From positions 1 through 54,485 of the forward strand of contig JAIELV010000001.1 in assembly GCA_019752595.1 (NCBI GenBank): a stretch of 54,485 bases of DNA, given 5' to 3'. This document shows, piece after piece, positions 1-54,077 of the stretch. The translations under genes were made by a program, and so were the position numbers. Numbering within the stretch: position 1 is the stretch's first letter; each line of letters begins with the position of its first letter. The stretch comes from Patescibacteria group bacterium. GTDB taxonomy: Bacteria; Patescibacteriota; Minisyncoccia; Phycocordibacterales; Phycocordibacteraceae. Under the pieces are notes generated by a model. It had not been told where the DNA came from, made no database searches, and saw only the letters and a program-made list of their open reading frames with translations.

Positions 1-3000
1 GGAGGACTTGCGATTGATGCACTGGGGAATGTCTATAATGCAGCGACTTCGACGTTGGCAACTATTGCAGGGACTCTTAATCTCGCCACACAAGTGACAG
101 GGGATTTGCTGTTCTCGAATCTCACGCAAATCGCCCCAAATTCAATTCTCGGAAACATTTCAGGCAGTACTGGAGATGTGGGAGCGATTGCCACATCTTC
201 ACTCTTTACTGGTTCAAACGGACAAACACTTGCCAGAGTGAACGGTACCTGGATGGGAGTTGCAACTACGACGGCAGGCACTGGGCTGACGTATGACGGA
301 ACAAGCTTCAACGCAAACTGTGTTGCAATTACAGGTTCCGCATCGTTGTGCGACGGAGATGATGCGACAGGAGGGGGCGGAAGCTGGCCGTTTGTAACTT
401 CCGTAACAAACTTTGGAACTTCAACACAATCTACATCAACACCGCTGTGGCTCAGAGGAAACAAGTACTCACTATTCGCTTCCTCGACTTCCGTTTTTGA
501 GTTTGCCTCAACAACGCAATTTACTTCAACAGGTATCACGTACCTCGCAACGGGAGGAGGGATGGTTGGTATCGCAACCAGCACTCCGCTTTCCTCTGCC
601 AAACTCGATCTCTTCGGTAATTTTACCTTCTCTGGTGCAGACAGGTATCTGAATTTCGGTGCAACCTCTACCGATTCGGTCGGTGTGAACGGGTATGGCT
701 TCCGTGATAATGCAGGCACATTGGAGTTCAAGAACTCCGGAGGCACCTGGCAGGGAGTGACGACGGCAACATCCGGGCCGAGTTTTAGCGTGCATCGGAA
801 TAATGTTTCTACCACGAGCGTTGATGGAGCAATAGTTGGTATAGATTGGACCACAGAAAGTTTTGACACGAACAATAATTTTGACCTTTCTTCTGATCGC
901 TTTACTCCTACCGTACCTGGCAAATATGTGGTCAGTGCAAGTGTTAGATGTAACAACTCGGCCGCTGACACCTGTCAGATTTATATTTATAAGAACGGTT
1001 CAGGGGGTGTGCTTATTGCGAGCCAGACAAGTGAAGTCCCCAACGCAACGCAAGGTGCGAGCGTCTCAACGATTGTTGATATGAACGGTACGACTGATTA
1101 TGTAGATGCGTATGTGCGCGTTATTGGTGACACAAATATATCTGGTGCTATCGGCTTTACGATTTTTTCAGGTGCCATGGTCGCTCCGGTAAATTCAAAC
1201 AACGCCGCCGGGTGGACGAATGACGGTTTCGCTTCCTATCTCCTGGATAATGCGGACAACGTGGGCGTCGGCACTTCTTCGCCGTTTGCAAAATTCGCGA
1301 TACAAGGAAATGCGGGTCAAACGAATCCCGTGTTTGAAATTGCTTCGTCTTCAACAGGAACAAAGTTCATATCGGTTGCAGGTAGTTCAGGGATTGTGAC
1401 AATGACGAACGCTTCAACCACCAACATCACATCAGCATACGCATCAACCACTAGTCAGATAATCTCAGGCTCTCTCACACTCGCCAATCTCTCTGGCTTC
1501 CTCAAAGCAACCGCAGGTGTTGTGGCAACCTCACTCATTGATCTCGCAAACGATGTGACCGGCATCCTTGGTGCTACGAACGGCGGCACGGGATGGGCAA
1601 ACTTGCAGGCAAACACTCTTCTCTTAGGAAACGGTACCAACAGAATCAGTACCACCACTGCAGGTACGAACGGGCAGGTACTTGCGTTGGTATCAGGAGT
1701 ACCGACGTGGGTTGCGACAACAACACTCGCTGATATTTCAGGAACTCTTACTGTAAATAAAGGAGGTACTGGCGCAACCACATTTACAAACAACAGACTC
1801 CTCACAGGAAACGGCACATCCGCACTTGTTGATGAAACAAATCTCACCTTTGACGGTTCTCTTCTTGCGGTGACAGGTAATGCGTCAACGACGCAACTCA
1901 CCACAACTGACTCAACATACTTGGCGACATTGGGAGGAAATGTGGGTATCGGAACAACGAGTCCTTACAAAGCACTTTCTGTTCAAGGAGGGGTTTCTAC
2001 GGATTTAGTTGTTCTCTCTACAACAAATACAAGTGGCGCTTCAGTTCGTTTTGATGGTAACGGTACGTATGACGGCAGAGCGTGGAGAATATCTGCAGGA
2101 GGAAGTGCAAACACGATATTCGGAACCAGCCCCGGAACAAAATTTGGCATCATTGACGCAACAGCAAACGCTTCTCGGTTGACGATAGATTCATCAGGTA
2201 GAACGGGTGTTGGTACTACATCTCCGTTCGCTCGTCTTACTGTGTGGGGCGGTGCATCGGAAATTAATCTTTTGGAGGTTGTAAATTCCGCATCCACAAC
2301 AGCGCTCCGCGTATCGGCTTCGGGTTTTGGTACCACCACACTTTCTGGCCTCGCTGTTTCAGGATCTGCAACCTCGACTTCAAATGTAGGTATCGATTTA
2401 TCAAGTGGGTGTTTTGCGATTAACGGTACCTGTGTCGGTGGCAGTTCATTTTCAAACACCATTGCTAACGGAGGAACGGCAACGACGACGTTTTATAACG
2501 GAGGAGTTGTTTTCTACAACTCTACACTCGGCACACTTTCACAAGCGTCAGCTCAGACAGGTCTTTTTTATAACAACACCACATCACGGCTCGGTATCGG
2601 CACCACAACCCCGAACGCGATGCTCGCCATCAGCACGAGCGGGGGCGAGGGACTGTATTTGGATAACCCAAGCGGACAATTTTCGATTATGCGCTATTTG
2701 AATAATGGCGGTATAAAAGCAAGCACGTATTGGGACAATACAGCAAGCAAGCTTGAAAACGCGATTTCAAGCACAGGAAACTTTACCTGGGTTTCAAATG
2801 GAAACGAATGGATGCGTATCGGCACGACAGGCAACGTCGGCATCGGCACAACGACGCCCTTTGCAAAATTCGATGTATATGCGGCGGACGTGAACGGCAT
2901 ACGAAGCATATCAACCGTTACACTTGGCTCTACGTCTGGGGGAGGATTTTTTGCACAAAACAATGCATCTTCTACTGCGGCAGATCAGCGGCTCGGGGGT

Positions 3001-5013
3001 CTCTTTTTCGGAACAAACATTGACGGAACAAGTTATTCATCTGCAGGAATCACTGGTTTCTCGAGCGAAGCGTGGAGTGCGACTGCACGCGGGGCACACT
3101 TGCGTTTTGAGACAGCGGGATTAGGTGTTAGTTCTCGTACGGAACGTATGCGAATAACTGCTGACGGAAATGTCGGTATTGGGACAAGCACTCCCGCATT
3201 CAAATTGCAGATAGCATCCGATTATGTGAACACTGGGGATATCAGCTCAGGTCAGTTTTCGGTAACGGGCGCAACCGACCCGACAAAACGAATCGCTCTC
3301 GGGTATGACACGACAAATAATTATGGATTTTTGAAGGCAGGTCGTGTGGGGATAGGTTGGGATAACATTTCCATTGCTCCGTTTGGGGGCAATGTGGGCG
3401 TCGGCACCACGTCGCCATGGGGACTTCTTTCAATAAATCCAAACGCGCTCGGCGCCAGCGTGCCTTCATTTGTTGTCGGTTCTTCAACTGCAACCAGCCT
3501 TATCGTGACAAACGCGGGTAACGTTGGCATCGGGCAGTTAGCACCAACGCATCGTCTGAACGTTCGTTCTCAGGCTTCAGCAACCAATGTGTTTGTGGTG
3601 AGCGGTGCAACAAGCAACGGTACGTTGGCACGCATCTACGATGATTCAGGCGTGGGCATTCTTTCCGTGTATGCCACCAGTGAAAACGAAACAATCCGTC
3701 TTTATGGCAACGGCAGTAGTTACTTAAACGGCGGCAATGTCGGTATTGGAACGACCTCTCCCGCCTACAAGCTCGATATTGCAGGAAATGTTGGGATGAG
3801 TGCGGGCGCGGGAAGTTCCGCGGCTATTTATCTCCAGGCGCGCAATATCGGGAATATGACACAGTTCGGAACCGAGGCATCTACAGGGAACTCTATTTTG
3901 TCTGGTGGCACCGCGTATGCGTCGATCTTTGGTTCTAACGGCGCATTTCCAGTGCAGTTTGGCACTTCAAATACTGTGCGCTTGACCATCGATTCTGCAG
4001 GTAATGTAGGTATAGGCACTTCAACTCCAGGATTTTTACTCTCTACGTCGGGTGGGAAGGTCGCCTTTAAATCAACCGCGTCTACTACTGCAGCGTTTGC
4101 TGTTGAAAATAACTACGGAAGAAACGTGTTTCAAGTCGATACGCGCGACACTGCGGCTGCTCTCTTTTCTGTATCTACGTCAACAGGGGGTACGTACTTT
4201 ACGATTGCGGCGGCGGGTAACACGGGGGTTGGAACCACAACGCCGTTTAAAGTATTTTCGGTTTCAGGCTCGGGCGCTTGGGACGGTCTCACGGCACTTT
4301 CAGGTACCTCTGGTACGCTGTGTTGGAACACTACAACAAGGGAAATTTTGTCCTCAACAGCTACCTCGTGTAACACCTCTTCGGCGCGTTTTAAAAACAG
4401 TATTGAATCTTTGGGTTCCAGTTCGGGTCTTGCAGAAATTATGAATCTGCGGCCAGTCTCGTTCAAATATAATAACGACGAAAATCCGGATACTACGTAC
4501 ACAGGTTTTATCGCTGAAGAAATCTTTGCTGTTGACCCACGCCTAGTAGTATTTGATCAGGATGGGCTTCCGTACAGCGTCAGATACGAAAACTTAACTG
4601 CTGTATTGGCTCTTGGCATACAGGAGTTGAATCTGAACATCAATACAATCGCGTCTTCCACCGCAAGCACAACTCCCGCTTCACTGAATTTTGCTGAATC
4701 GTTCTTCTCGAATGTGTTTACAAAAATAACGACGTGGCTTGCGGATGCAACAAACGGAATAGGGAAGTTGTTTGCAAACGAAATTCATACGAAACAGATT
4801 TGCGTCGCAAAATCTGACGGTACGGAATTCTGTGCGGATGGCGACACATTGGCGGCGCTTGCTGCATCTGCTGGGGGCCCTCCAACTCCGCCACCGACCC
4901 CTCCGCCAACACCTGAACCCACTCCCGAGCCAGAGCCTGAACCCGAACCAACTCCAGAGCCCGAACCGACGCCAGAATCTGCGCCCGAAGAAACGCCTTC
5001 GCCTACACCCTAA
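1..5013 (+). CDS. Giant tail-fibre-like surface protein, 5'-partial. Contains a C1q/TNF-like module, GNVGIGTTSP-type repeats, a Peptidase_S74 intramolecular-chaperone domain and a Pro/Thr/Glu tail.
   Basis: Frame 1 is open from nt 1; the track M at 55 is a TTG, so the gene very likely continues upstream. The C-terminal region SSARFKNSIESL...LRPVSFKYN...GFIAEEIFAVDP...YENLTAVLALGIQELN matches the endosialidase/tail-fibre chaperone (S74) pattern. Residues around SFSVHRNN...GKYVVSASV...IYKNGS...FSGAMV resemble a C1q/TNF jelly-roll. Confidence 0.85.
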   Translation, partial: GGLAIDALGNVYNAATSTLATIAGTLNLATQVTGDLLFSNLTQIAPNSILGNISGSTGDVGAIATSSLFTGSNGQTLARVNGTWMGVATTTAGTGLTYDGTSFNANCVAITGSASLCDGDDATGGGGSWPFVTSVTNFGTSTQSTSTPLWLRGNKYSLFASSTSVFEFASTTQFTSTGITYLATGGGMVGIATSTPLSSAKLDLFGNFTFSGADRYLNFGATSTDSVGVNGYGFRDNAGTLEFKNSGGTWQGVTTATSGPSFSVHRNNVSTTSVDGAIVGIDWTTESFDTNNNFDLSSDRFTPTVPGKYVVSASVRCNNSAADTCQIYIYKNGSGGVLIASQTSEVPNATQGASVSTIVDMNGTTDYVDAYVRVIGDTNISGAIGFTIFSGAMVAPVNSNNAAGWTNDGFASYLLDNADNVGVGTSSPFAKFAIQGNAGQTNPVFEIASSSTGTKFISVAGSSGIVTMTNASTTNITSAYASTTSQIISGSLTLANLSGFLKATAGVVATSLIDLANDVTGILGATNGGTGWANLQANTLLLGNGTNRISTTTAGTNGQVLALVSGVPTWVATTTLADISGTLTVNKGGTGATTFTNNRLLTGNGTSALVDETNLTFDGSLLAVTGNASTTQLTTTDSTYLATLGGNVGIGTTSPYKALSVQGGVSTDLVVLSTTNTSGASVRFDGNGTYDGRAWRISAGGSANTIFGTSPGTKFGIIDATANASRLTIDSSGRTGVGTTSPFARLTVWGGASEINLLEVVNSASTTALRVSASGFGTTTLSGLAVSGSATSTSNVGIDLSSGCFAINGTCVGGSSFSNTIANGGTATTTFYNGGVVFYNSTLGTLSQASAQTGLFYNNTTSRLGIGTTTPNAMLAISTSGGEGLYLDNPSGQFSIMRYLNNGGIKASTYWDNTASKLENAISSTGNFTWVSNGNEWMRIGTTGNVGIGTTTPFAKFDVYAADVNGIRSISTVTLGSTSGGGFFAQNNASSTAADQRLGGLFFGTNIDGTSYSSAGITGFSSEAWSATARGAHLRFETAGLGVSSRTERMRITADGNVGIGTSTPAFKLQIASDYVNTGDISSGQFSVTGATDPTKRIALGYDTTNNYGFLKAGRVGIGWDNISIAPFGGNVGVGTTSPWGLLSINPNALGASVPSFVVGSSTATSLIVTNAGNVGIGQLAPTHRLNVRSQASATNVFVVSGATSNGTLARIYDDSGVGILSVYATSENETIRLYGNGSSYLNGGNVGIGTTSPAYKLDIAGNVGMSAGAGSSAAIYLQARNIGNMTQFGTEASTGNSILSGGTAYASIFGSNGAFPVQFGTSNTVRLTIDSAGNVGIGTSTPGFLLSTSGGKVAFKSTASTTAAFAVENNYGRNVFQVDTRDTAAALFSVSTSTGGTYFTIAAAGNTGVGTTTPFKVFSVSGSGAWDGLTALSGTSGTLCWNTTTREILSSTATSCNTSSARFKNSIESLGSSSGLAEIMNLRPVSFKYNNDENPDTTYTGFIAEEIFAVDPRLVVFDQDGLPYSVRYENLTAVLALGIQELNLNINTIASSTASTTPASLNFAESFFSNVFTKITTWLADATNGIGKLFANEIHTKQICVAKSDGTEFCADGDTLAALAASAGGPPTPPPTPPPTPEPTPEPEPEPEPTPEPEPTPESAPEETPSPTP
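1255..4250 (+). repeat. Dispersed in-frame repeats encoding G-N-V-G-I/V-G-T-T-S/T-P followed by an amphipathic strand. I read at least 11 copies.
   Basis: Copies seen near nt 1258, 1939, 2200, 2587, 2829, 3166, 3389, 3518, 3733, 4001 and 4216, for example ggcaatgtcggtattggaacgacctctccc. Confidence 0.8.
4876..5010 (+). repeat. Low-complexity Pro/Thr/Glu tail (PPTPPPTPPPTPEPTPEPEPEPEPTPEPEPTPE...)
   Basis: Read directly from the translation and from the cc[a/g]-ac[a/c]-cc / gaa-cc[a/c/g] repeats in the DNA. Confidence 0.9.
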
Positions 5014-35652: not shown

Positions 35653-37944
35653 ATGCATACCAAAACATATCGAGTAAAAGGAATGCATTGCGCGTCATGT
35701 GCGGTGAATATTGAAAAGGAATTCAAAAAAACAGAGGGTGTGTCCACCGCGGAAGTTAATTACGGAACTGAAACTGCGAAGGTTACATTCGACGAATCAA
35801 AAACAAACCCTCACCATTTGTCAGAAAAAATAAAACCACTTGGCTATTCTCTCGATACTTCAACAGCCGACGAAATGGGAATGTCAGAGGACGAACATGC
35901 TGCGCATCTTGGGCTGAAACAGTCAAAAAAAGAGAAACTGGCAGAAATAGCTGATATGAGGGGTAAAGTGTACTCGGCAATCCCGCTAGCTGTTTTTAGT
36001 ATTTTTGTTATGGGGTGGGACATTCTTGCGGAGTTCGGAGTCGTTTCGGGGATGTCTGTAGTTGTGTATGAGTTCGTGCATCACCTTTTGCCGATTTTGG
36101 CGACATATGTGCTTTTTGTAGTCGGCACACCTTATCTTCTGGGTTTCTATCGCTTTTTGCGTTATGGCAAGGCGAACATGGATACGCTCATAGGCATAGG
36201 CACGTCGGTTGCGTTTCTATACAGCTTTATCGTTATGGCATTTGAAGGGCCGCTCCGACAATTCATTAATGTTGACCAGACCTACTACGACGTCACGATT
36301 GTAGTCATTACGTTTATTGCACTTGGCAAGTATCTAGAGGCAAGAGCAAAAATAAAGACGGGAGATGCAATAGAAAAGTTACTCAACCTTCAAGCAAAAA
36401 CCGCGCTCGTCATTCGTGAAGGAAGAGAGCAAGAAATTCCAATTGAGCAGGTTGTACATAATGATCTGATCATTGTTAAGCCAGGAGGGCGTATTCCCGT
36501 AGACGGAGTTATTACCGAAGGTACTTCGTATGTAGACGAGTCAATGATTACGGGCGAGCCGATGCCAGTTGAAAAAAATATTGATGATTCGGTAGTTGCC
36601 GGTACTTTGAACACCTCAGGTTCATTCACATTCAAAGCGACAAGGGTCGGGTCTGAAACGCTGCTCGCTCATGTGGTCGCCATGGTTCAGGAGGCACAAG
36701 GAAGTCGCGCCCCAATACAAGCTCTTGCAGATAAAGTTTCTTCAGTATTTGTACCCGTTGTGCTTGTTATTGCATTCGTAGCGCTGGGCGGGTGGTTGTT
36801 CTTCGGAACATCCGCGTTAGGCTTTTCGCAGGCACTGTCTTTCGGACTTGTGTCGTTTGTGGGCGTGTTAGTCATTGCATGCCCGTGTGCGCTTGGCCTT
36901 GCAACTCCCACAGCGATAATCGTCGGCGTCGGCAAAGGAGCGAAGGAAGGCATTCTTATAAAAGATGCGGCAACACTCGAAAAACTCCATAAGGTGAATA
37001 CCGTTGTTGTGGACAAGACGGGTACGATAACCCGCGGCAAGCCCGAACTCGTAGGTATTAAAGATTTTTCAAAACTTGGGGAAGAAAAGATTGTCAGTAT
37101 TCTCGCATCGCTTGAAAGCAAGTCGGAGCACCCGATCGCTCGTGCAATTATGCAGCATGTGCACGCGAAGAATATTGCTTTTAGCACGGTTTCAAACTTT
37201 GAGAGTATCAAGGGCAAAGGGGTAAAAGGAATGATAGATGGCAAAGAGTATTTTGCAGGAAATACGAAACTGATTGCTGACCTCAAACTTTCTTTTGATT
37301 CGATAGGTATTGAAAAGGAAACAAAACAGGGCAAGACACCGATTATTCTTACCACGAAGGACGCAGTACTTGGAGTGGTTATGGTAGCTGACGCAATAAA
37401 GCCAGAAGCAGTGAAAGCGATTTCAGATCTTCATGCGCTCGGCATTACCACAGTCATGCTCACGGGTGATGATACGAACACTGCTCAAGCTGTCGCCAAA
37501 GAAGTAGGTATAGATGAGGTGGTTGCAGAAGTATTACCCGAAGAGAAACTTAAAAAAATAAAGGAACTTCAGAGTGCAGGTCGGATTGTTGCCATGGCTG
37601 GGGACGGAGTGAATGACGCTCCCGCTCTTGCACAAGCGGATGTAGGTATTGCTATGGCAACAGGAACAGATGTTGCAATAGAAACAGCCGGAATAACACT
37701 TCTCAATGGCGATATTTCAAAACTAGTTAAAGCTATCCGACTATCTAAAATGACAATGACTGGCATCAAGCAGAATCTATTTTTTGCCTTCATCTATAAC
37801 ATCATCGGGATTCCCTTGGCGGCGGGAATCTTTTTTCCGTTCTTTGGGTGGCTTCTTTCACCAGTGTTTGCAGGACTCGCCATGGCGCTATCGAGCGTCT
37901 CGGTTGTGGGCAACTCTTTACGGCTTAAGGCTAAAAGTTTATAG
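35653..37944 (+). CDS. copA: Copper-translocating P1B-type ATPase
   Basis: N-terminal [16 protein letters not shown] ([11 protein letters not shown]), DKTGTIT, TGD and GDGVNDAP. Confidence 0.96.
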
Positions 37945-37946
37945 AT

Positions 37947-38348
37947 ATGATTTCAAACAAACTTAAATATATTTTCGGACTCTCAATACCGCTTTTCATA
38001 GCGCACGGAATTGAAGAAATTTTGACCGGTTTCTATAATCTAGACCAGTGGGATGAGTGGATATTTGGTTTACTACCTTTCTCGTCAAATCCTGAGGCCG
38101 CGTTTATCACGTCCCAGGTGATGCTATGGTTGACGTTCATTATCTTATATTTCTCACTGGCAAGTGAACGCACCCGCTTATACCTGCTCGCGCTTGTCGG
38201 TGTTATTTATATATTTGAATTACATCATCCGATCAAGGCAGTCCTGGTCGGGGGATACTATCCAGGGCTTATTACATCGCTGCTCTTTCCCGTTGTAGCC
38301 TTCTATTTCTGGAGAGAATGGCTGCGTAATTACAAAGAAGTGAAATAG
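37947..38348 (+). CDS. HXXEE-domain membrane protein
   Basis: IAHGIEEILTG (H-x-x-E-E) and about 4 TM helices. Confidence 0.6.
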   Translation: MISNKLKYIFGLSIPLFIAHGIEEILTGFYNLDQWDEWIFGLLPFSSNPEAAFITSQVMLWLTFIILYFSLASERTRLYLLALVGVIYIFELHHPIKAVLVGGYYPGLITSLLFPVVAFYFWREWLRNYKEVK

Positions 38349-38352
38349 ATCT

Positions 38353-39372
38353 ATGCAAACCTACACTTTTCATGTTCACGGAATGCATTGCAACGCGTGT
38401 GTTGTATTGACTGAGAATGAACTCAAGGACCACGAGTTGGTCGAACATGCTGTTGCTGACCTCAAAACTTGTTGTGTTGAGGTTCATGGAAATTTCGGTG
38501 ATAAAACACGAGAAGAAGTAGCAATAGAACTTTCAAAAGTTATGGAACCGCATGGCTACAAGATTTCTCTTGAAAAAGAACAAAAAGGCGTGAAGTGGTC
38601 GGATTTCAAAATCGCTTTGCCAGTTGCGGTCGGGTTCATGGCGTTCTTTGTGATACTGCAAAAATTAGGACTAGTAAATCTCATAACGACAGGAGAGGTA
38701 AACTTCGGCACGGCATTTTTCATCGGGCTCATTGCTTCTGTATCTACCTGCATGGCAGTTGTAGGAAGCTTGGTGCTGTCAGTATCGGCAAATTACGCTA
38801 AAGAGGGTGATAAGGTACGCCCACAAGTACTGTTTTATATTGGACGCCTCGTTGCGTTTTTTATTCTGGGGGGGGCTATCGGCGCACTAGGGTCAGTGTT
38901 TCAGCTTGGCCCGACAGGAACATTCTTGATGAGCTTTATCGTAGCGATAGTGATGCTTATTCTCGGCATAAATTTGCTTGATGTTTTCCCATGGGCGAAG
39001 AAATTGCAGCCAACACTTCCTAAGTTTCTCTCGAACCACCTCTTGGAATTGAAAAAATTGAATCATACACTTACCCCCGTACTTCTCGGTGTCGTTACGT
39101 TCTTTCTTCCATGCGGCTTTACGCAGTCAATGCAGATTTATGCCCTTTCCACAGGAAGTTTCTTCACAGGAGCAATGGTCATGTTCGTATTTGCACTCGG
39201 TACTCTACCTGTCTTGGCGCTCCTCAGTTTTAGTTCTCTGGGAATCAAGGACAAGTTGCAGTCGGGCGTATTCTTCAAAACAGCAGGGCTTGTCGTTATC
39301 TTCTTCGCGCTGTTCAACCTTATCAATAGCTTCGTCATAATCGGGCTCATACCGCCTGTATTTAATTTTTAG
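38353..39372 (+). CDS. HMA metal-binding domain fused to a DsbD_2/TauE-like transmembrane domain
   Basis: GMHCNACV HMA motif. TM segments carry IASVSTCMAVVG and FFLPCGFTQSM conserved Cys. Confidence 0.7.
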   Translation: MQTYTFHVHGMHCNACVVLTENELKDHELVEHAVADLKTCCVEVHGNFGDKTREEVAIELSKVMEPHGYKISLEKEQKGVKWSDFKIALPVAVGFMAFFVILQKLGLVNLITTGEVNFGTAFFIGLIASVSTCMAVVGSLVLSVSANYAKEGDKVRPQVLFYIGRLVAFFILGGAIGALGSVFQLGPTGTFLMSFIVAIVMLILGINLLDVFPWAKKLQPTLPKFLSNHLLELKKLNHTLTPVLLGVVTFFLPCGFTQSMQIYALSTGSFFTGAMVMFVFALGTLPVLALLSFSSLGIKDKLQSGVFFKTAGLVVIFFALFNLINSFVIIGLIPPVFNF

Positions 39373-46295: not shown

Positions 46296-47390
46296 TTATG
46301 GAAGTGAAACAATCGTGTACTTGATGATGTTGTTCTCATCATTCTTTTCCTGAATGCTTCCTGTAGGATCGACATTCACGGTGAACTGAGCATTTGAGTT
46401 GATGTCAAAGCTGTCGAAGCCGATAGTGAATTCAATACGGTCTTTTGGACGCAATTCCTGCTGCATCGGAGACGAGTAGATGTACGAGGGAAGAGTAGGA
46501 AGAACCGCGTTAAAGGCGAACTGATTTGAGGTCTTGGTACCCTGGTTTTCGACAGAGAAACGAACTGCAATTCTCTGTGTGCGTGATGGTGTTGAGGATG
46601 CAGTGAATGCGCCTGTTGATTTATCAACGACACCGACTTCGATAATTTTCGGCACGAGGTCGACATAGCCGTTCGGGTTTGAGACAGGTGCACCTGAGCC
46701 AGGAATAGTGATTGTGGTGTTTGTCGGAGCTCCTGGTGTCGTAGGAGTTGTTGGCGTAGAAGGTGTGGTCGGTGTCGTAGGAGTGGTTGGGGTCGTCGGC
46801 GTCGTTGGCGTAGAAGGAGTGGTTGGTGTGCCAACGGTTGGACTTGAGCCAAGAGCAGGATTCGTCAACGTCAACGTTGCCTTTCCAGTCACTGTTGGCT
46901 GGTTCGCGCCGTTCGGAGTGAAGTCTATGTACACCGTGACGTCTGCAAAGCGGTTCGTGTCAGAAAATCCTGTGAGCGTGATTGAGTTGTTGCTGTGTAC
47001 AAAGTTAAACGGCACGTTGCAGAAAATAGTATCCTGCGCATTTGCCGAATTGAGGGCTGTCATGCGTACACCGTCTGCACAATCAAAGCGGAAGCGGTAC
47101 GAACCTTCAACTGTTTTCTTATCGTGCGCCCATGAGAGAACAAATGCTTTGTTGTGTTCGATATTCAAAGAGGGAACAGACAGTGCGATCGCTTCATCTG
47201 CAGGAACGAAAATAGAGGTAAGCGAAACGATTGCTGATGCAAGGTTAGAGAGTGCTCCTGGTACCGCGCGGGCTACCTGAACTGAACCCCACATACCAAT
47301 CCCGAGGATTGCGATAAAACCGATAATAGCGGCAACGCGCTGAACGCCTCCCGACATGAGGCCGCGCTTAGAATTCGGTGTGTTTTCCAT
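46296..47390 (-). CDS. Membrane-anchored surface protein with a Pro-Thr linker and a C-terminal CARDB-like domain
   Basis: TM helix VAAIIGFIAILGIGMW. PT repeat. The CARDB pattern runs DLVPKI...FSVENQGTKTS...VNVDPTGSIQEKNDENN. I prefer Met13 of the track ORF (about 47390): it follows a minus-strand TTGACA-N17-TACTGT by 7 nt. The track's TTG at 47426 lies within that -35 box. Confidence 0.7.
   Translation of the reverse strand: MENTPNSKRGLMSGGVQRVAAIIGFIAILGIGMWGSVQVARAVPGALSNLASAIVSLTSIFVPADEAIALSVPSLNIEHNKAFVLSWAHDKKTVEGSYRFRFDCADGVRMTALNSANAQDTIFCNVPFNFVHSNNSITLTGFSDTNRFADVTVYIDFTPNGANQPTVTGKATLTLTNPALGSSPTVGTPTTPSTPTTPTTPTTPTTPTTPSTPTTPTTPGAPTNTTITIPGSGAPVSNPNGYVDLVPKIIEVGVVDKSTGAFTASSTPSRTQRIAVRFSVENQGTKTSNQFAFNAVLPTLPSYIYSSPMQQELRPKDRIEFTIGFDSFDINSNAQFTVNVDPTGSIQEKNDENNIIKYTIVSLP
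46729..46833 (-). repeat. Tandem Pro-Thr coding repeat (PTTPSTPTTPTTPTTPTTPTTPSTPTTPTTP)
   Basis: Reiterated ggtgtcgtaggagtKgttgg-type units on the plus strand. Confidence 0.85.
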
Positions 47391-47572
47391 GTGTCGGACA
47401 GTATCATGGATATAAGGACTTGTCAAGCATGCGCTTTACTCCTGCCTTTTTCAGGGTGTAATCCAAATCCTTGACAAAGTGTCTTCTATGATGTAAGCTA
47501 TTTAATAGAAACTGTCTGGAATAAATCCACCTGTGGAGCTACTCCTCAGTTTCGGACAGTTAGTTCATCACT

Positions 47573-48253
47573 ATGAAAGGTGGAAATCACATACCAGAAG
47601 ATATACAGCACATAGCTCAAAAGCCGTGGGAGTTTCTCGCGGTTTTTCTCGCGACGTTCTTTGTTTTCTCAACAGTTCTCTTTGCTCTGGATTTTTATCC
47701 TGAAGCTCCGAAGACTGTTGCAGAAGCTGCAAAGACTGAGTCTGTTGTAGAACAAACTGTTTCGGAACCGAAAGTCGCAGGAGCAAGTGTTTCTACAGGA
47801 GCAGTTCTTCCTGTCGGGAGCCCTGTCCGCATTCGCATTCCTTCTGTCGGCATAGATACGCCGATACAGAATCCGAGTTCGACGGACATCACGGTACTCG
47901 ATAACGCGCTTTTAAAAGGAGCGGTCCGTTATCCAGGAAGTGCACTCCCAGGACAAGACTCACGCATGTTTATCTTCGGTCACCAAAGTGGTTTGCCGGT
48001 TGTAAAAAATCAGGCCTTCAAGGCCTTCAACAATCTGCAGAATGTGAAAGTTGGCACTGAAATTGAAGTCTACTCGGATACGGCTGTGTATCGGTACCGA
48101 GTTATTTCAATCGAACATGCATCGGTTAATGACGGTTGGGTAGATTTGAGCGGTAACGACAGAATGCTCATTCTCTCAACGTGTGATAGTTTCGGCAAAA
48201 AGACAGACCGAAACATCGTCAGAGCAGAATTTGTATCACAGGAATTACTTTAA
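47573..48253 (+). CDS. Sortase-family transpeptidase
   Basis: N-terminal TM anchor, FIFGHQSG (His), MLILSTCDS (TLxTC-type Cys) and NIVRAEF (Arg). Confidence 0.85.
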   Translation: MKGGNHIPEDIQHIAQKPWEFLAVFLATFFVFSTVLFALDFYPEAPKTVAEAAKTESVVEQTVSEPKVAGASVSTGAVLPVGSPVRIRIPSVGIDTPIQNPSSTDITVLDNALLKGAVRYPGSALPGQDSRMFIFGHQSGLPVVKNQAFKAFNNLQNVKVGTEIEVYSDTAVYRYRVISIEHASVNDGWVDLSGNDRMLILSTCDSFGKKTDRNIVRAEFVSQELL

Positions 48254-48285: not shown

Positions 48286-49791
48286 ATGGCTGACCGCTCA
48301 AAAGACAGACTTTTCAGAGCAAGACATTTGGGACGAGCATTCGTCGCTGTTTTGGGTGCAACTGCTCCCGCGGCGCTTACGGCCCCTGCGTTTGCGCAAG
48401 ACGCAGCTCCAGTGCGTCCGCTGAGGACTATTGGGGAGCATCCGTTTGCAAACTCAATGACAGAAGCATTGAGCGACGCTCACCTGAGACGTGTTTTTGC
48501 TACTGCTGTTGCAGAGGGCACACTGACAGAAGCTGATCGTGCGGCATTTTTGGCTATGGCTATTGCTCAGCGCACGACCATCGGAGACGTGCAACTTGTT
48601 CAGCCAGGTGCAGAATTTGAATGGATGATGGATCAAAATGATCCAGCAGCGGGTGCTGGTCCCGAGCGTTTGAGATGGGCAGGCACTCAGCCTTTCCGCG
48701 CTCGCGTCATGACGATGACTCGCTCAGACAGAGCAACCGTGAGGTTCGGTGTTGTCATGGACACGATTGACGGGCGCCCATGCTATAACTTTTTTCCTGA
48801 GTCAGTTACGCCTGCTGTCGGAACACCACCTCCGCCACCTCCTCCTCCGAATCCTATAACAGCACCCAGATCTCCTGCGCAATGGTATTTGCAAGAAGGA
48901 GTTGTAGCTGCCGATTGTTGCCAAACACGTGTCGTGAACGGTCTTTTGATTGCAGAATACCGCGGTACTGTTGAAGAGGCACAGAGATATTTTGCTGCAA
49001 ATCTTCGTCGTCCTGGTAACGGAGTGCAAACACTTCGCCCAGGAGACTATCAGGAAGGATTAAATCAACCGTTTGCATACCTTGTAGTTAGAGATCCGAG
49101 CACAGGGCAGGAAACATTCTGGTGCATGGAGCTCAACAATTCTGGAAGATTTTCTCGTCCTGTTGTAGTAACAGGTGGAGGTAGAGGGGAGCCTTCGAGG
49201 AGAACTGAAGTAAGAACGAGAGCGCAGTTTGACGCTTTGGTTACGGGAACTTTGGAATTCAATGAAAATTTTTCTTTGACTGGATCAGGACGTGGTGCTG
49301 ATATCAGCGTTGTAAGTATTACTGAGCCAACTCCGCTGACGGTTGTTGACGCAGATAGAAACGGAGTAGGAGAAGGATTTGCGGTAAATACAAGAACACG
49401 CAGAGCTGCGCTTGAAAGCCAGATGTCGCTTATCGCACGCACGGTCTTTCCAGTGAGTACAGAGCCTGCAGTGAATGAACGCGCGGATAGATTGTGGGCA
49501 CAGATTGCAGCTACATCAATTCCTGAAGCATTTATCACGGGACGCACAGAAGGAGCGCGCATTTCCGCTCTCCGTACGGCGTTCCCTGAACTTACTGCGG
49601 TTGAAGCACGTCAGTTGGCTTCATTCCTTCACTACTACGGTGGCGTTGATCGAGGAGCTGAACGAGGTGACCAGTTTGTTGCCGAATACAGAACTGGTGG
49701 CGTTCCTCGAACAGTAGGAGGATTCTTTAATGCAGGCGTGGGAGCAGAAGTAACTGCAGGCGTCTACCCAGGAGTGCGTTCAGGTCAGTAA
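48286..49791 (+). CDS. Secreted Arg-rich hypothetical protein with essentially no lysine
   Basis: Signal peptide ...AVLGATAPAALTAPAFA|QD. A P8 tract. About 50 Arg against a single Lys, at residue 6. No family recognised. Confidence 0.7.
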   Translation: MADRSKDRLFRARHLGRAFVAVLGATAPAALTAPAFAQDAAPVRPLRTIGEHPFANSMTEALSDAHLRRVFATAVAEGTLTEADRAAFLAMAIAQRTTIGDVQLVQPGAEFEWMMDQNDPAAGAGPERLRWAGTQPFRARVMTMTRSDRATVRFGVVMDTIDGRPCYNFFPESVTPAVGTPPPPPPPPNPITAPRSPAQWYLQEGVVAADCCQTRVVNGLLIAEYRGTVEEAQRYFAANLRRPGNGVQTLRPGDYQEGLNQPFAYLVVRDPSTGQETFWCMELNNSGRFSRPVVVTGGGRGEPSRRTEVRTRAQFDALVTGTLEFNENFSLTGSGRGADISVVSITEPTPLTVVDADRNGVGEGFAVNTRTRRAALESQMSLIARTVFPVSTEPAVNERADRLWAQIAATSIPEAFITGRTEGARISALRTAFPELTAVEARQLASFLHYYGGVDRGAERGDQFVAEYRTGGVPRTVGGFFNAGVGAEVTAGVYPGVRSGQ

Positions 49792-49792
49792 A

Positions 49793-49820
49793 TTGACAAA
49801 ACATTAAATTAATGTATACT
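49793..49820 (+). promoter_or_regulatory. Near-consensus sigma70-type promoter for the giant adhesin gene
   Basis: TTGACA (49793-49798), a 16-nt spacer, then TG-TATACT (49813-49820). The track ATG at 49812 lies inside the -10 region. Confidence 0.7.
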
Positions 49821-49835
49821 GAAAATAAGAAAAAT

Positions 49836-52800
49836 ATGTCACTCCTACTCGGCAAAAAACACACGATTTTGAGAAACTTCTTTGTATTCGCGGTGCTTTT
49901 TGTCGTGCTGTTTATCGGTGCATGGCTCGCACTCGACGAAGCGAGTATCGCTTTTTCTCCAGAGGCAATAATTGCAGAAGCATCTGCAGGTTGTGGTGGT
50001 TGTTTTAATGATTTTCCTCTCCGCAACACTCACATTGATGGAGGTGGCGGAGGTGGCGGAGGTGGCGGAGGTGGCTATACACCGACGCCGTACTGCACCA
50101 TTACCGCAAGCCCGAACCCTTCAACTGGTCCTGGTGAACCAGTGTATCTAACGTGGACGACATATCTTGCAACATCTGCAACAATTAGTTCTGGTGTGGG
50201 TTCCGTCAATCCCGTCCTAGGTGGCACTGTCACTGTATATCCCTCAGTCAATACCACGTATACGATGACGACCCAGCACGGAACGTATGGTTCCGCTACT
50301 TGTCAGGTTGTTGTACAGATTCCCCCTCCACAGTTGGGCTGTATTGAGGTTTTGAAGGAAACCTATGACACGAACGGCAATATTTTGAACCCAGTGGCTC
50401 AGTTCACCTTCAAGCTCGACGGAGTAACAACTGCAGTGAATGATGCCAATGGGTATGCAATTTTCAATAACGTTTCTCCAGGCCTTCATACAGTCTCAGA
50501 AATTCTTCCACCAACGTGGCAGCTTCTTTCAATCACTCCAGTCAATGGTTTGGTGTACGTAAGTCCAGGTCCTATTTGTGCGGCAGTCGTATTCAAAAAC
50601 AAACAGGTTATTGAAACGCCTCCGCCAACCTGTACGCTTGCAATAACACCTTCGGTGATTGATGCTGGCGACGCTGTTTCAATAGCGTGGGCAACGACGA
50701 ACGCTACTCAGATTTCCATAGACGAAGATGTGGATGGCCCTATGGTTCCGATTTCGGGAGGTACGGTAACGGCACATCCGACACAAACCATAACGTATCA
50801 CTTCCATGCAATAAACGAGGTTGGGCAGGCGAACTGTCAGCAAACGGTTACGGTGCGACCACCGACGAATAACTCATGCCCAGTTCCTTCTTCTTTGAGT
50901 GACAATACTACCAACGCGATTAATTCCGCGCCTGGTACTGAAAAAGATCTTCAGGAAATTCTTGACGACAACACGCCCTACAATCTACAAGTATTCACCA
51001 ACCAGAAGCAGTACCAGAACTGGACTGTCACTTCGGGCTCACACATCAAGATAACGGCTACGCATGTGAATCACTACACAGCCCTGAGACAAGTCTTCGG
51101 GTTCTACAGAAATGGTGATATTTCGACATTTACTCCAATCTACAAAACGGCAGCTATCCCAGGTCAGGAGTCAGTTCCGCTCTCATCCACTGGTCCTTTT
51201 GTCATTACTCCGAATGTCGGTGGCACTATTGCCTTCGCTATCAAGAGCTATCAGGCAAACGGAAGTCTGTACGGCGTGAAGGCGAGCGAAAACGCACTGA
51301 ATCAGAACGGACGTGACCAAATGGTCGCTTACAATCCGTCTGCGAATAAATACGTACTCGCGTTTGAAGACGTTATTGAGGGCGACGACGATTTTAACGA
51401 TCTCGTTGTTGACCTCACGCTCGACTGTGTAGACCCTGTTGTTAAAGGTTGTATTGAAATCAAGAAAGAAACCTACAACACGAACAACGTACAGATTTTC
51501 CCTGTCGCACAGTTTACGTTCAACTTGGACGGTAATGCGCAGACGACACAGAACGATGCTTCAGGTAACGCGGTCTTTAACGATGTATCCGTTGGTCTTC
51601 ACACGGTTTCTGAAATTGTGCCTCCAACATGGACTCAACTTTCAGTAACTCCAGTCAACGGGTTGGTGTATGTTGCTCCAGGCCCTATCTGTGCAGCAGT
51701 TGTTTTCAAGAACAAACAGACTATTACCACACCTCCTCCAGTGACGGTTTCCGTAACGAAAATCGTTTGCGATTCTGAAGCGGATCTTCCAAATCGTTCA
51801 GGTGGAGCAAACATCACCGCAACAACCGCAGCTGACTTCTTGGCAACTCATCCGAACTGCCGTTTACAGCCGAACTGGGTCTTTGAGTGGGCGAATGCAA
51901 GCGTAGGAAATCCTGGCGACAATACAGGTGCGGGTGGCGCAGGATGGAATACACTCGCTCCGACAAATGCAAACGGCACCACGACGATTGCTATTCCTGT
52001 TTCAGCAATTACAGGCAGCCAGATTTGGGTGCGTGAACAGATGCAGAGCGGTTTCGTTCCGTTCACAGGAGTTTCAGGCGGAAATGTATCTGCAGAAATG
52101 TACTGTTCAACAGATGTGTTGAATTATGACAACTTGGATGCAATCGCGAGCCCAACGTCAGGGTCTACCTATCACTGTGTTGCATGGAATGCACATACTC
52201 CTCCAAACCAGCCAACGTGCGTTGTGAATGCATCACTCACTTCAGGAAATAATTATTCGCTCACGTGGTCAACTACAAACGCAACCTCTTTCACTATTAA
52301 CCAGGGAATTGGCTCAGTGACTCCAGTTGCGGGTGGTTCAGTGTCCGTGACTGCAACGACGACCACAACATACATTGGTACTGCAACAGGCCCTGGGGGC
52401 ACGTTTAACTGCCCAACAACTGTCACGATTACGCCGAACGTTATCACTCCTGTATGCTCGCTCTCTTTAAGCGTGTCCTCAGGTCAGATTCGAACAGGTG
52501 AGAGTATCAAACTTTCTTGGACATCATCAAATGTGACGAGCGGTTTCATCACGAATTACGGCACTACGACTCCCGTTTCAGGAGGTACATCTGAAGATTT
52601 GTTCCCGTCGACTGACACTACCTACTCAGGTACGTTCGTTGGTCCGCACGGCACGACAACTTGCTCCACGAATGTTCGCGTCACTACGGGTGGTTGCCAA
52701 GGTAACTGTGGTGGAGGTATGAATCCTCCAAACGTGGTGATGTATTCAAAACCAGGTGACACGCCATTGGTCGCATCCGTCTTTCTTTCACAAATTCCGT

Positions 52801-53792
52801 ACACTGGCTTTGAAGCAGGCCCAGCATTGACCGCAATCTTCTGGCTTGCTGTGGTGCTTCTTGCAGGATTGGTTGCGTACTTCGCTCTCGGTAGACGTGG
52901 AATTATGAATATGTTCTCGGGTCACATTGCCGCAGTTGCAGGAGTGCCTACTGAATCTGATATACGTCACACACTAGAGGAGCGCGGAGAAATTGTTCCT
53001 GAGGTACACAACGCGCCTGTGGTTGCGTCAGTTGCAACACCAGTGCCAGTGTTTACTCCCGTGGCACTTCCAATTACATCTCAGGCAATTGTTACTGCAC
53101 CTATAGTTGCCCCTGCAGTTTCAGCTGAAGCAGGAATTCCTGATCTTGCCGATGTGATTGAATCACGAGCACATGCTGCAGGCGTTCTGATGTCGCCTGA
53201 AGCAGTACAAGGTGCAGTTGCACTCGCTTCAGATCGTGCTGATGTCCTCAAAGTATTCGGCACTATCTTGAATGACGCAGTCCGCACGCTTCCTCGCGAA
53301 GATGGATGGATTATGCTGACGTCGGATCGTTTGGAAACTTTGGCAGGAAACATCGCTCCGAAAGTCGCTGAAAAAACAATTGTTTCGACTGTTGTTCCGA
53401 CATATACGATTGCATCAGCAAAAACAGCAGCGCCTGTTGAGACGGTTTCCGTCCAGGGAGTTGATGAAGCTGTGGCGGTTCAATTCGTGACGTCGATTGT
53501 TTCTGGGAATCGTGAACTCGCGTTCTCAATCATCCGCTCAATGGAACATGACCGTGTAAACCCGACGACATTGATGACTTCAGCCGCAACTGTCCTTGAC
53601 CGCCTCTACCGCGTACGTCAGGGAGGCAAAAACGGTATTGATAGCGCACTCGTCGATGCATCACAGCATATGACTGACGAGAATGTGCATAAGCTTGTTG
53701 AAGTCTTCACACATTCACTCGATACCGTATACGCAAATCCGTTCACGGGCGTAAAGCTCGCGCTCGCTCAGGCGTTTGAGATTATCGGCTAA
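49836..53792 (+). CDS. Giant surface adhesin. Order of parts: N-terminal TM, Gly12, Ig-like modules, two SpaA/prealbumin-like modules, DUF4114, an internal IPYTG-TM-GRR signal, then a ~296-aa C-terminal domain.
   Basis: Start set at Met9 of the track ORF. AFEDVIEGDDDFNDLVVDL matches the DUF4114 signature. CIEVLKETYD...VVFKNKQ is duplicated. LSQIPYTGFEAGPALTAIFWLAVVLLAGLVAYFALGRRG lies at residues about 992-1030 of the track ORF. Confidence 0.85.
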   Translation: MSLLLGKKHTILRNFFVFAVLFVVLFIGAWLALDEASIAFSPEAIIAEASAGCGGCFNDFPLRNTHIDGGGGGGGGGGGGYTPTPYCTITASPNPSTGPGEPVYLTWTTYLATSATISSGVGSVNPVLGGTVTVYPSVNTTYTMTTQHGTYGSATCQVVVQIPPPQLGCIEVLKETYDTNGNILNPVAQFTFKLDGVTTAVNDANGYAIFNNVSPGLHTVSEILPPTWQLLSITPVNGLVYVSPGPICAAVVFKNKQVIETPPPTCTLAITPSVIDAGDAVSIAWATTNATQISIDEDVDGPMVPISGGTVTAHPTQTITYHFHAINEVGQANCQQTVTVRPPTNNSCPVPSSLSDNTTNAINSAPGTEKDLQEILDDNTPYNLQVFTNQKQYQNWTVTSGSHIKITATHVNHYTALRQVFGFYRNGDISTFTPIYKTAAIPGQESVPLSSTGPFVITPNVGGTIAFAIKSYQANGSLYGVKASENALNQNGRDQMVAYNPSANKYVLAFEDVIEGDDDFNDLVVDLTLDCVDPVVKGCIEIKKETYNTNNVQIFPVAQFTFNLDGNAQTTQNDASGNAVFNDVSVGLHTVSEIVPPTWTQLSVTPVNGLVYVAPGPICAAVVFKNKQTITTPPPVTVSVTKIVCDSEADLPNRSGGANITATTAADFLATHPNCRLQPNWVFEWANASVGNPGDNTGAGGAGWNTLAPTNANGTTTIAIPVSAITGSQIWVREQMQSGFVPFTGVSGGNVSAEMYCSTDVLNYDNLDAIASPTSGSTYHCVAWNAHTPPNQPTCVVNASLTSGNNYSLTWSTTNATSFTINQGIGSVTPVAGGSVSVTATTTTTYIGTATGPGGTFNCPTTVTITPNVITPVCSLSLSVSSGQIRTGESIKLSWTSSNVTSGFITNYGTTTPVSGGTSEDLFPSTDTTYSGTFVGPHGTTTCSTNVRVTTGGCQGNCGGGMNPPNVVMYSKPGDTPLVASVFLSQIPYTGFEAGPALTAIFWLAVVLLAGLVAYFALGRRGIMNMFSGHIAAVAGVPTESDIRHTLEERGEIVPEVHNAPVVASVATPVPVFTPVALPITSQAIVTAPIVAPAVSAEAGIPDLADVIESRAHAAGVLMSPEAVQGAVALASDRADVLKVFGTILNDAVRTLPREDGWIMLTSDRLETLAGNIAPKVAEKTIVSTVVPTYTIASAKTAAPVETVSVQGVDEAVAVQFVTSIVSGNRELAFSIIRSMEHDRVNPTTLMTSAATVLDRLYRVRQGGKNGIDSALVDASQHMTDENVHKLVEVFTHSLDTVYANPFTGVKLALAQAFEIIG
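50040..50075 (+). repeat. Perfect 4x GGAGGTGGC tandem repeat encoding Gly12
   Basis: gga ggt ggc appears four times in frame, read directly. Confidence 0.95.
50334..50628 (+). repeat. Internal duplication, copy 1 (prealbumin/SpaA-like module)
   Basis: GCIEVLKETYDTNGNILNPVAQFTFKLDG...LHTVSEILPPTW..TPVNGLVYVSPGPICAAVVFKNKQ. Confidence 0.8.
51441..51740 (+). repeat. Internal duplication, copy 2
   Basis: GCIEIKKETYNTNNVQIFPVAQFTFNLDG...LHTVSEIVPPTW..TPVNGLVYVAPGPICAAVVFKNKQ. By eye, most positions are identical to copy 1. Confidence 0.8.
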
Positions 53793-53801
53793 TCGCCGTC
53801 T

Positions 53802-54077
53802 ATGTACGAATCTCTGCCGCATCTTTCAGATATGGCGGAGTGGGTTCGGCAGCATCCTCGGGAATCTATGTTTCTCGGTGTTGCAGCGGTCGTTGCCGCG
53901 CTTGGCGCGCAGCGCTTCATGAAATGGCGCGCTCGGCAAAAGTTTTTGGAAACAGGGAGTGATTTACCGCTCTTAGTTGAACCTCGTCGACGATCGTATA
54001 CACGTCGCGATCTTGCTATCACACCTCGCGCTCATACAAACAGACATCGGGTGAGCAGGCGCAGGCAGGGAAAATAA
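53802..54077 (+). CDS. Small membrane protein with a highly basic tail (91 aa)
   Basis: One TM helix (MFLGVAAVVAALGA) and an Arg-rich C-terminus. It lies 9 nt after the adhesin stop. Confidence 0.45.
   Translation: MYESLPHLSDMAEWVRQHPRESMFLGVAAVVAALGAQRFMKWRARQKFLETGSDLPLLVEPRRRSYTRRDLAITPRAHTNRHRVSRRRQGK

Follow-up and report, generated by a model that had tools for sequence, protein, structure and literature searches.

Canonical sortase sorting signals are located at the extreme C-terminus of the protein and end in a short charged tail (PMC12445088). A C-terminal location is indeed part of their definition, and what stays in the membrane after the cut is usually considered waste. There is evidence of a leftover with a role in Streptococcus gordonii, where the sortase remnant or "C-peptide" is sensed by the SGO_1180 two-component system (PMC11326707). 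Sortases are also common in the candidate phyla radiation, CPR (PMC6744442). We have analyzed a stretch of 54,485 nucleotides from a Patescibacteria group bacterium (contig JAIELV010000001.1, assembly GCA_019752595.1), referred to here as the window, in which the open reading frame (ORF) 49812..53792 (+) encodes a protein of 1326 aa that carries a signal of this type, IPYTG, well inside the chain. A conserved module, predicted to be cytoplasmic, comes after the signal, and a sortase gene lies upstream. We consider it probable that the sortase site is the joint between a displayed adhesin and a membrane-tethered protein made of a lid and a collar-like domain, one gene giving two products. Our literature searches on sortase signals and on the sortases of CPR and Patescibacteria gave no account of an internal signal followed by a folded cytoplasmic domain, or of this family of Parcubacteria; a 2026 preprint on a CPR pilus deals with an unrelated, chaperone-usher-like system. 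Judging from the sequence, what appears to be new is a sortase substrate that carries a conserved cytoplasmic module without precedent, and to which every sequence hallmark of such substrates applies but the terminal position.

The internal sorting signal and its sortase

The pentapeptide (aa 995-999, nucleotides 52794-52808) is followed by a hydrophobic helix and by the basic residues GRRG. An earlier note on this stretch had pointed out these three parts and their internal placement, and translation, hydropathy and the conservation seen in 125 representatives bear it out. The same note had put the residues that follow the signal at about 296, and the count between GRRG and the stop codon is exactly 296, while the tails of the family range from 280 to 390 aa. 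The predicted cut site is between Thr997 and Gly998. The candidate sortase-recognised sequence of the C-terminal module is FLSQIPYTGFEAGP, and VFLSQIPYTGFEAGP is a candidate peptide substrate for the neighbouring sortase. A strict search for [LIV]P.TG plus helix plus basic residue found a single site in the window versus a mean of 0.02 in shuffled sequences (4 out of 200 shuffled windows had one), and a relaxed six-frame scan of the window gave no further P.TG-plus-helix site in any substantial ORF.

A first homology search with the C-terminal 342 residues as the query recovered 14 relatives, and the motif, the helix and the tail were kept wherever the sequence reached far enough upstream. A profile of the tail only, blind to the motif, was then run against 1.84 billion representative proteins and matched 551 clusters (50% identity) at E <= 1e-3, of which 348 at E <= 1e-10. 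The tail was located within a few residues of the C-terminus in proteins 600-1900 aa long. Specifically we have inspected 150 listed representatives of the 551 clusters, along with the relatives from the first search and the protein of the window. The signature L-x-Q-[IV]-P-Y-T-G-F-x-A-G-P and a helix conserved in sequence precede the tail in 125 of the 126 listed representatives that cover the upstream region, the sole exception being P0147 (see below), so the motif is internal in the relatives as well, a point that the earlier note had raised. In a logo of those 125 representatives (at <=50% identity, anchored on the motif) the counts were L 124, Q 108, [VI] 123, P 125, Y 122, T 125, G 125, F 123, A 115, G 110 and P 98. 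The P, T and G of the pentapeptide are thus invariant, 5-6 residues ahead of the helix, and the hydrophobic helix comes directly after the pentapeptide in 125/125. Our analysis indicates that the three-part signal is one conserved module and not the product of chance.

The other hallmarks of LPXTG-type substrates are also present. Besides the pentapeptide, the hydrophobic segment and the basic residues, there is an N-terminal export signal, and a hydrophobic segment is found at the N-terminus of the 89 full-length family members. Sortase substrates typically have a SpaA/prealbumin domain, and its presence in the ectodomain we have counted in favour of a sortase substrate. Only the location at the extreme C-terminus is absent, given the 296 residues that follow. 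The single helix, the basic residues after it and the restriction of cysteines to the ectodomain (22, versus none in the tail, which is acidic with an isoelectric point of 5.2) place the motif on the outer side of the membrane and the tail in the cytoplasm, the topology that the earlier note had predicted. A second membrane span at the hydrophobic aa 1070-1088 was considered and rejected, the segment being Pro-rich and within a poorly conserved linker. Ectodomains differ widely across the family in length and domain content, and for this reason the constant part of the protein is the one that runs from the last immunoglobulin (Ig)-like domain through signal and helix to the tail.

The sortase gene is located 1.56 kb upstream of the start of the ORF, close to the 1.5 kb first noted. 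Its product has the catalytic residues His137, Cys204 (in a TLxTC-like context) and Arg213, which align to 4d70, and ends 13 aa past Arg213. The three residues are kept in 34 sortases of the loci. The closest solved structures are 4d70 and 8t28 (E ~7e-07), and the generic NCBIfam model sortase_fam is passed (44.9 versus 39.35). To look at the linkage we scanned one genome per species and obtained 37 loci (L003-L039), all of them from Patescibacteria/Parcubacteria (Paceibacterota, Kaiserbacteria), six of which are cut by contig ends and hence uninformative upstream. A sortase gene was found upstream, on the same strand and mostly abutting, in 33/33 loci with upstream DNA (L001, L002 and 31 of L003-L039), including members whose tails are only 23-29% identical to that of the window. 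Five more contexts (L040-L042, L045-L046), to which distant tail proteins or sortase homologues had led, have the same arrangement, and the same-strand upstream sortase is present in all 40 informative related loci besides the window. In each locus the PYTG protein was the only ORF with an element resembling a sortase signal up to 10 kb from the sortase, and the window has no ordinary short-tailed substrate. The best-supported reading of these comparisons is that a dedicated sortase and its single cognate substrate form a core, vertically inherited pair of Parcubacteria.

There is one lineage that departs from this pattern. P0147 is a protein of only 339 aa that starts just ahead of the helix, without the ectodomain, and its motif is degenerate (SRSLYVGV versus SQVPYTGF). 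In its loci the order is GyrB, a shortened CARDB protein, the helix, lid and collar protein, ThrRS and DnaE, and we found in them neither a sortase ORF nor any tblastn trace of a sortase. Sortase, ectodomain and P.TG motif were then lost together, with the helix and tail kept in place. The joint loss ties the sortase to the motif and the ectodomain, and the retention of the tail without a sortase indicates that the tail has a function of its own. Being a single lineage, this is telling but not statistical. In every other informative locus the tail came with a linked sortase. The inspected members have either motif and sortase or a degenerate remnant of the motif, the opposite of the widespread tail free of both that the earlier note had considered.

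Fold of the cytoplasmic tail

At curated thresholds neither Pfam nor NCBIfam has any match to the tail, and to this extent the earlier statement that no family could be recognised stands. It does not hold below the thresholds and at the level of the fold, where the tail resembles domains II-III of clamp-loader subunits. An AlphaFold model based on the tail alignment (mean predicted local distance difference test, pLDDT, of 83.8) has a small alpha/beta domain (model residues 8-77) and a helical bundle (113-221), with a disordered linker between them, and the first domain modelled alone reached a pLDDT of 90.4. When the whole tail was compared by Foldseek with the PDB, all 26 hits at E <= 1e-3 (from 6.6e-05 to 1e-03) were bacterial clamp-loader subunits, i.e. 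gamma/tau, delta (including YqeN of B. subtilis) and delta', aligned over both domains, and eukaryotic RFC subunits appeared lower in the list. The alignment with 3glh_E covers 118 columns with a root-mean-square deviation (rmsd) of 3.0 A. With the first domain only, AAA+ lids came on top (RuvB with TMq 0.62-0.65 and rmsd 2-3 A; RFC; delta 1jqj_D with TMq 0.65), together with the lid-like N-terminal domain of Pol epsilon subunit B, all of them at E values above 1e-3. The tail would be, then, not the helical domain of an unfamiliar kind that was first proposed from the sequence but a putative AAA+ lid followed by a module similar to the clamp-loader collar.

Sequence profiles point in the same direction. 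The NCBIfam model holA matches 13 of 27 diverse tails (best E 1.4e-05) and dnaX_nterm 8 of the 27 (best E 7.5e-06), in register with domain III, and the sub-threshold Pfam hits of the tails include DNA_pol3_gamma3, DNA_pol3_delta_C and Rep_fac_C. One tail fragment had been annotated by JGI as the delta subunit of Pol III. On the other side, the tail of the window stays far from the cut-offs of holA TIGR01128 (20 versus 80 bits) and dnaX_nterm (13 versus 250 bits), a PDB sequence search with the tail profile was empty even at E <= 10, and the comparison of the diverse tail profile with HolA and DnaX of E. coli by hhalign found the right domain III region with probabilities of only 9.6% and 1%. 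The lid-only fold search, as said, does not reach 1e-3 either. Homology in sequence between the tail and the clamp loaders is not established by these comparisons, and their common ancestry is plausible but not proven. What the models make firm, at the level of the fold, is the order of a predicted AAA+ lid and then a domain like the clamp-loader collar, in the absence of an ATPase domain: domain I (AAA+/RecA-like) is missing, and the tail consists of one domain of 70 aa and another of 110 aa between disordered linkers. Variants exist, with the lid only (L045 8616-10556 and P0068, P0070, P0101 and P0109) or with only the collar detected (L042 8001-10025, L046 10122-12239 and the P0141 type), and with the motif PYTGL[DE]LG in the latter.

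Genes and features around the signal

The features of the locus are collected in Table 1. The genes belong to a block with the order PheS/PheT, GyrB, a divergent CARDB membrane protein, the sortase, 0-2 variable ORFs, the PYTG protein, ThrRS, DnaE and RNase HII. Some 37 loci, distant ones included, have a homologue of the CARDB protein in the same place and orientation, and the protein could be a partner or an acceptor of the system. The variable ORF of the window, to which neither Pfam nor NCBIfam gave a match, has a peculiar composition (1 Lys, 10% arginine). In L008-L013 and L029 its homologues are found upstream of the sortase, and it is not a constant part of the system. The tracts of Asp followed by 5-12 glycines appear in 24 of the 89 full-length members, all in the close subfamily of the window protein. 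They could act as a flexible stalk or, if the N-terminus is processed, as the sortase nucleophile.

Table 1. Features of the PYTG gene, its tail and its neighbours (nucleotide positions in the window, except for the last row, which refers to the related loci named there).
Feature	Nucleotides	Residues	Strand	Remarks
CARDB protein, membrane-anchored, with Thr/Pro-rich linker	46296..47426		-	Pfam CARDB 3.4e-07; divergent from the sortase
Sortase, with N-terminal membrane anchor	47573..48253	226 aa	+	PF04203, 74.5 bits versus cut-off 26.6, E 7.9e-21
Variable accessory ORF	48286..49791	501 aa	+	Between sortase and PYTG gene; secreted-looking, signal-peptide-like N-terminus
Whole PYTG gene	49812..53792	1326 aa	+	Signal/anchor, variable ectodomain of ~950 aa, PYTG signal, transmembrane helix, cytoplasmic tail; layout common to 125 representatives
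N-terminal hydrophobic segment, signal peptide or signal anchor	49875..49943	22-44	+	Kyte-Doolittle <=2.87
Oligo-glycine tract D-G12	50040..50075	77-88	+	CxxC before it; conserved Asp; ~30 residues past the signal segment
Ectodomain core	50337..51719		+	Ig-like repeats flank SpaA/prealbumin-like and DUF4114 domains
Two SpaA/prealbumin-like domains		176-265 and 546-636	+	Pfam SpaA (PF17802), 26.4 bits versus cut-off 23.1
DUF4114 domain		485-536	+	Pfam, 29 bits versus cut-off 27
Membrane-proximal constant ectodomain	52455..52784		+	Last Ig-like domain, C-x-x-x-C-GGG segment, strand PLVASVFL running into the motif; kept in alignment and family sequences
Extended sorting signature LSQ-IPYTG-FEAGP	52785..52823		+	Logo from 125 representatives
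Transmembrane helix	52821..52889	1004-1026	+	Kyte-Doolittle <=2.5; family-conserved T, FW, S/A, AY inside
Basic stop-transfer GRRG	52890..52901	1027-1030	+	K or R commonest at +32 and +33 in the family
Linker 1	52902..53144	1031-1111	+	Pro/Ala/Val-rich, variable in length, poorly conserved
AAA+ lid-like domain	53145..53354	1112-1181	+	Conserved E.RAH..GvLLSPEA and PREDGWilLs.eR; AlphaFold and Foldseek
Linker 2	53355..53459	1182-1216	+	Predicted disordered; pLDDT <50, model residues 80-111
Clamp-loader collar (domain III)-like helical bundle	53460..53789	1217-1326	+	C-terminal end FTGVKLALAQAFE
Intact helix, lid and collar ORF of P0147	L047 2040-3059; L048 1645-2664			Three contigs

Some other genes of the window deserve mention. 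An ORF of 91 aa with 18% arginine at 53802-54077 (+), between the PYTG gene and ThrRS, has no family match and no BLAST homologue in the related loci. Between PheT and GyrB, which are closer together in the related genomes than in the window, the region 35653-39372 (+) codes for two proteins, a P-type ATPase of the copper type that has an HMA domain, and a membrane protein similar to DsbD; the latter fits the need for disulfide handling by a Cys-rich ectodomain. The ORF of 1652 aa at 55-5013 (+) codes, close to its C-terminal end, for a Peptidase_S74 domain (intramolecular chaperone of endosialidase), which recalls tail fibres, here in a chromosomal setting. As for the related records, several are labelled "Saccharibacteria" in TPA assemblies, with a gene order that matches Parcubacteria.

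Possible processing and comparison with known systems

In the reading that we favour, the precursor would be exported via Sec and its variable, Cys-rich ectodomain of SpaA/Ig type would end outside, with the helix at aa 1004-1026 anchoring it in the membrane and the tail of ~300 aa remaining in the cytoplasm. The membrane-anchored sortase encoded upstream would read the signature L-x-Q-[IV]-P-Y-T-G-F-x-A-G-P at the outer face and cut at Thr997/Gly998. The ectodomain would then be passed to an amine acceptor, most likely a cell-wall precursor, another protein being also possible. The remnant, formed by GFEAGP, the helix, the flexible linker, the AAA+ lid and the collar-like domain, would persist as a separate, membrane-tethered cytoplasmic protein. 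In clamp loaders, collar domains are oligomerisation modules that hold the subunits together. Since the module of the tail is in addition acidic and Cys-free, it would most likely act by protein-protein docking or oligomerisation, and in this way the amount or the place of adhesin display might be tied to a conserved cytoplasmic partner. That this partner is the DnaX clamp-loader complex, or some other AAA+ assembly into which the remnant docks through its collar, coupling surface display or host attachment to DNA replication, we regard as a long shot. Were it true, the position beside gyrB, dnaE and rnhB would be more than inherited synteny, and this in ultra-small, host-dependent bacteria.

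Several observations weigh against cleavage. The sortase fits none of the described classes (the best scores with the NCBIfam models of classes A-F were 26-35 bits, versus cut-offs of 140-166, and none passes). Its adjacency sits in a larger syntenic block, so that the loci are orthologous and amount to one inherited fact and not 40, and because the whole block is syntenic we have downgraded adjacency as independent evidence; the case of joint loss is more telling. Conservation reaches F-x-A-G-P and goes into the helix, beyond what classical LPXTG recognition needs, and it could reflect a role other than cleavage. Finally, L047 and L048 show that the tail can work without any cleavage.

The last three of these points are those that would be expected from an uncleaved type I membrane adhesin, anchored or clustered from the inside by its lid and collar, whose signature is kept for juxtamembrane packing, for helix-helix oligomerisation, or for a docking on the sortase or the CARDB protein that involves no catalysis, the sortase serving other substrates. 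The strong conservation of the tail and the lack of any literature report of a sorting signal with ~300 aa behind it are also in its favour. Nevertheless, the P, T and G are invariant at the exact positions that a sortase uses, and at the right distance from the helix; no alternative substrate is found near the sortase; the catalytic triad is kept across the family; and when the sortase was lost, motif and ectodomain went with it. We therefore find an uncleaved adhesin unlikely, and cleavage the more probable.

Cleavage could also serve to build a fibre, with the ectodomains joined covalently, pilus-like or head-to-tail, Thr997 being linked either to a Lys or to the oligo-Gly exposed at the N-terminus of the next subunit, and with the collars clustering the precursors to make the polymerisation efficient. 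The pilin clusters of Gram positives typically have a dedicated sortase next door and Ile or Val as the first residue of the pentapeptide, as in RrgB (IPQTG) and RrgC (VPDTG), the SpaA-type domain (PF17802) scores above its cut-off, the close subfamily has the oligo-Gly tract near the N-terminus and collars oligomerise in clamp loaders. But the window protein has no [YFW]PK, and [YFW]PK[NDST] was found in 0/102 long family members. The sortase lacks the features of class C, i.e. the DP[WFY] lid motif and the C-terminal anchor (the class C model gives 29.5 versus 160), the oligo-Gly would stay internal without further processing and 65 of the 89 full-length members lack it, and each locus has a single substrate gene. 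A fibre seems to us rather improbable.

The remnant might in turn be released from the membrane, the sortase acting as a site-1 protease and an intramembrane site-2 protease then freeing the lid and collar to act on a partner such as the clamp loader. Site-2 proteases such as RseP and RasP classically require a short extracytoplasmic stub, and the 6-7 residues left outside after the sortase cut would make the helix such a substrate. The helix has besides conserved small or helix-destabilising residues (G, P, S/A). A sensed sortase remnant is known, as mentioned, in S. gordonii (PMC11326707). However, the lineage without sortase keeps the helix on the tail, suggesting that the tethered form is functional, and lid-only and collar-only variants exist; two-step release has in our opinion very little chance of being correct. 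An artefact, i.e. a mis-assembly, a missed stop or a frameshift that fused an ordinary substrate to an unrelated downstream gene, has nothing on its side beyond the odd architecture and was ruled out by the uninterrupted architecture of 125 representative clusters, many independent assemblies and the related loci.

The joint between a displayed adhesin and a tethered lid and collar protein remains the probable explanation, and if the cleavage were confirmed the sortase would be the maturation enzyme of a two-compartment polyprotein, with a one-to-one link between the protein displayed outside and the one kept inside. With a minimum of 551 clusters (50% identity), the family belongs to the core of many Parcubacteria. 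Little is understood of the envelope of these organisms or of their dependence on hosts, and the hypothesis can be tested in them. We have found no description of the lid and collar fold in a membrane-tethered setting linked to the envelope. The combination of L-x-Q-[IV]-PYTG-F-x-AGP with a compact sortase might also be of use in protein ligation.

Compared with the canonical LPXTG systems of Gram positives, the locus shares the export signal, the [LIV]P.TG at the outer face, the helix, the basic residues, the adjoining His/Cys/Arg sortase and the ectodomain of SpaA/Ig type. It differs in that the signal has 296 conserved residues behind it, where the canonical one has just a few basic residues, in that the flanks L-x-Q and F-x-A-G-P and the helix are conserved in sequence, with Tyr almost always at the X position, and in that the system of Parcubacteria sits in a housekeeping block with one substrate per sortase. 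With the class C pilin clusters it has in common a dedicated sortase beside a substrate with SpaA domains and the I or V at the first position, but the pilin lysine is absent, the sortase has neither the class C lid nor a C-terminal anchor, and there is only one substrate gene. One enzyme per distinctive, extended tripartite signal is also found in the class B sortase (NPQTN), exosortase, archaeosortase and rhombosortase systems (PMC3237569); the signals of these are, however, terminal and short, and none has a folded cytoplasmic domain.

The tail has its own set of relatives. As in the clamp-loader subunits (HolA, DnaX and HolB, i.e. delta, gamma/tau and delta'), the order of the fold is a putative lid and then the collar, and the top structural matches are all subunits of this kind. 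Unlike them, the tail has no domain I, is membrane-tethered through a helix plus a long disordered linker, scores far below the family cut-offs and has 35-100 aa of disordered linker between its domains, with some members reduced to the lid or to the collar. The C-peptide of S. gordonii is the closest parallel in the sense that the membrane piece left after the sortase cut has a role of its own, there to report adhesin processing. That piece is a short helix with a few residues and depends on a separate kinase, whereas the remnant proposed here would carry a folded cytoplasmic module of ~300 aa.

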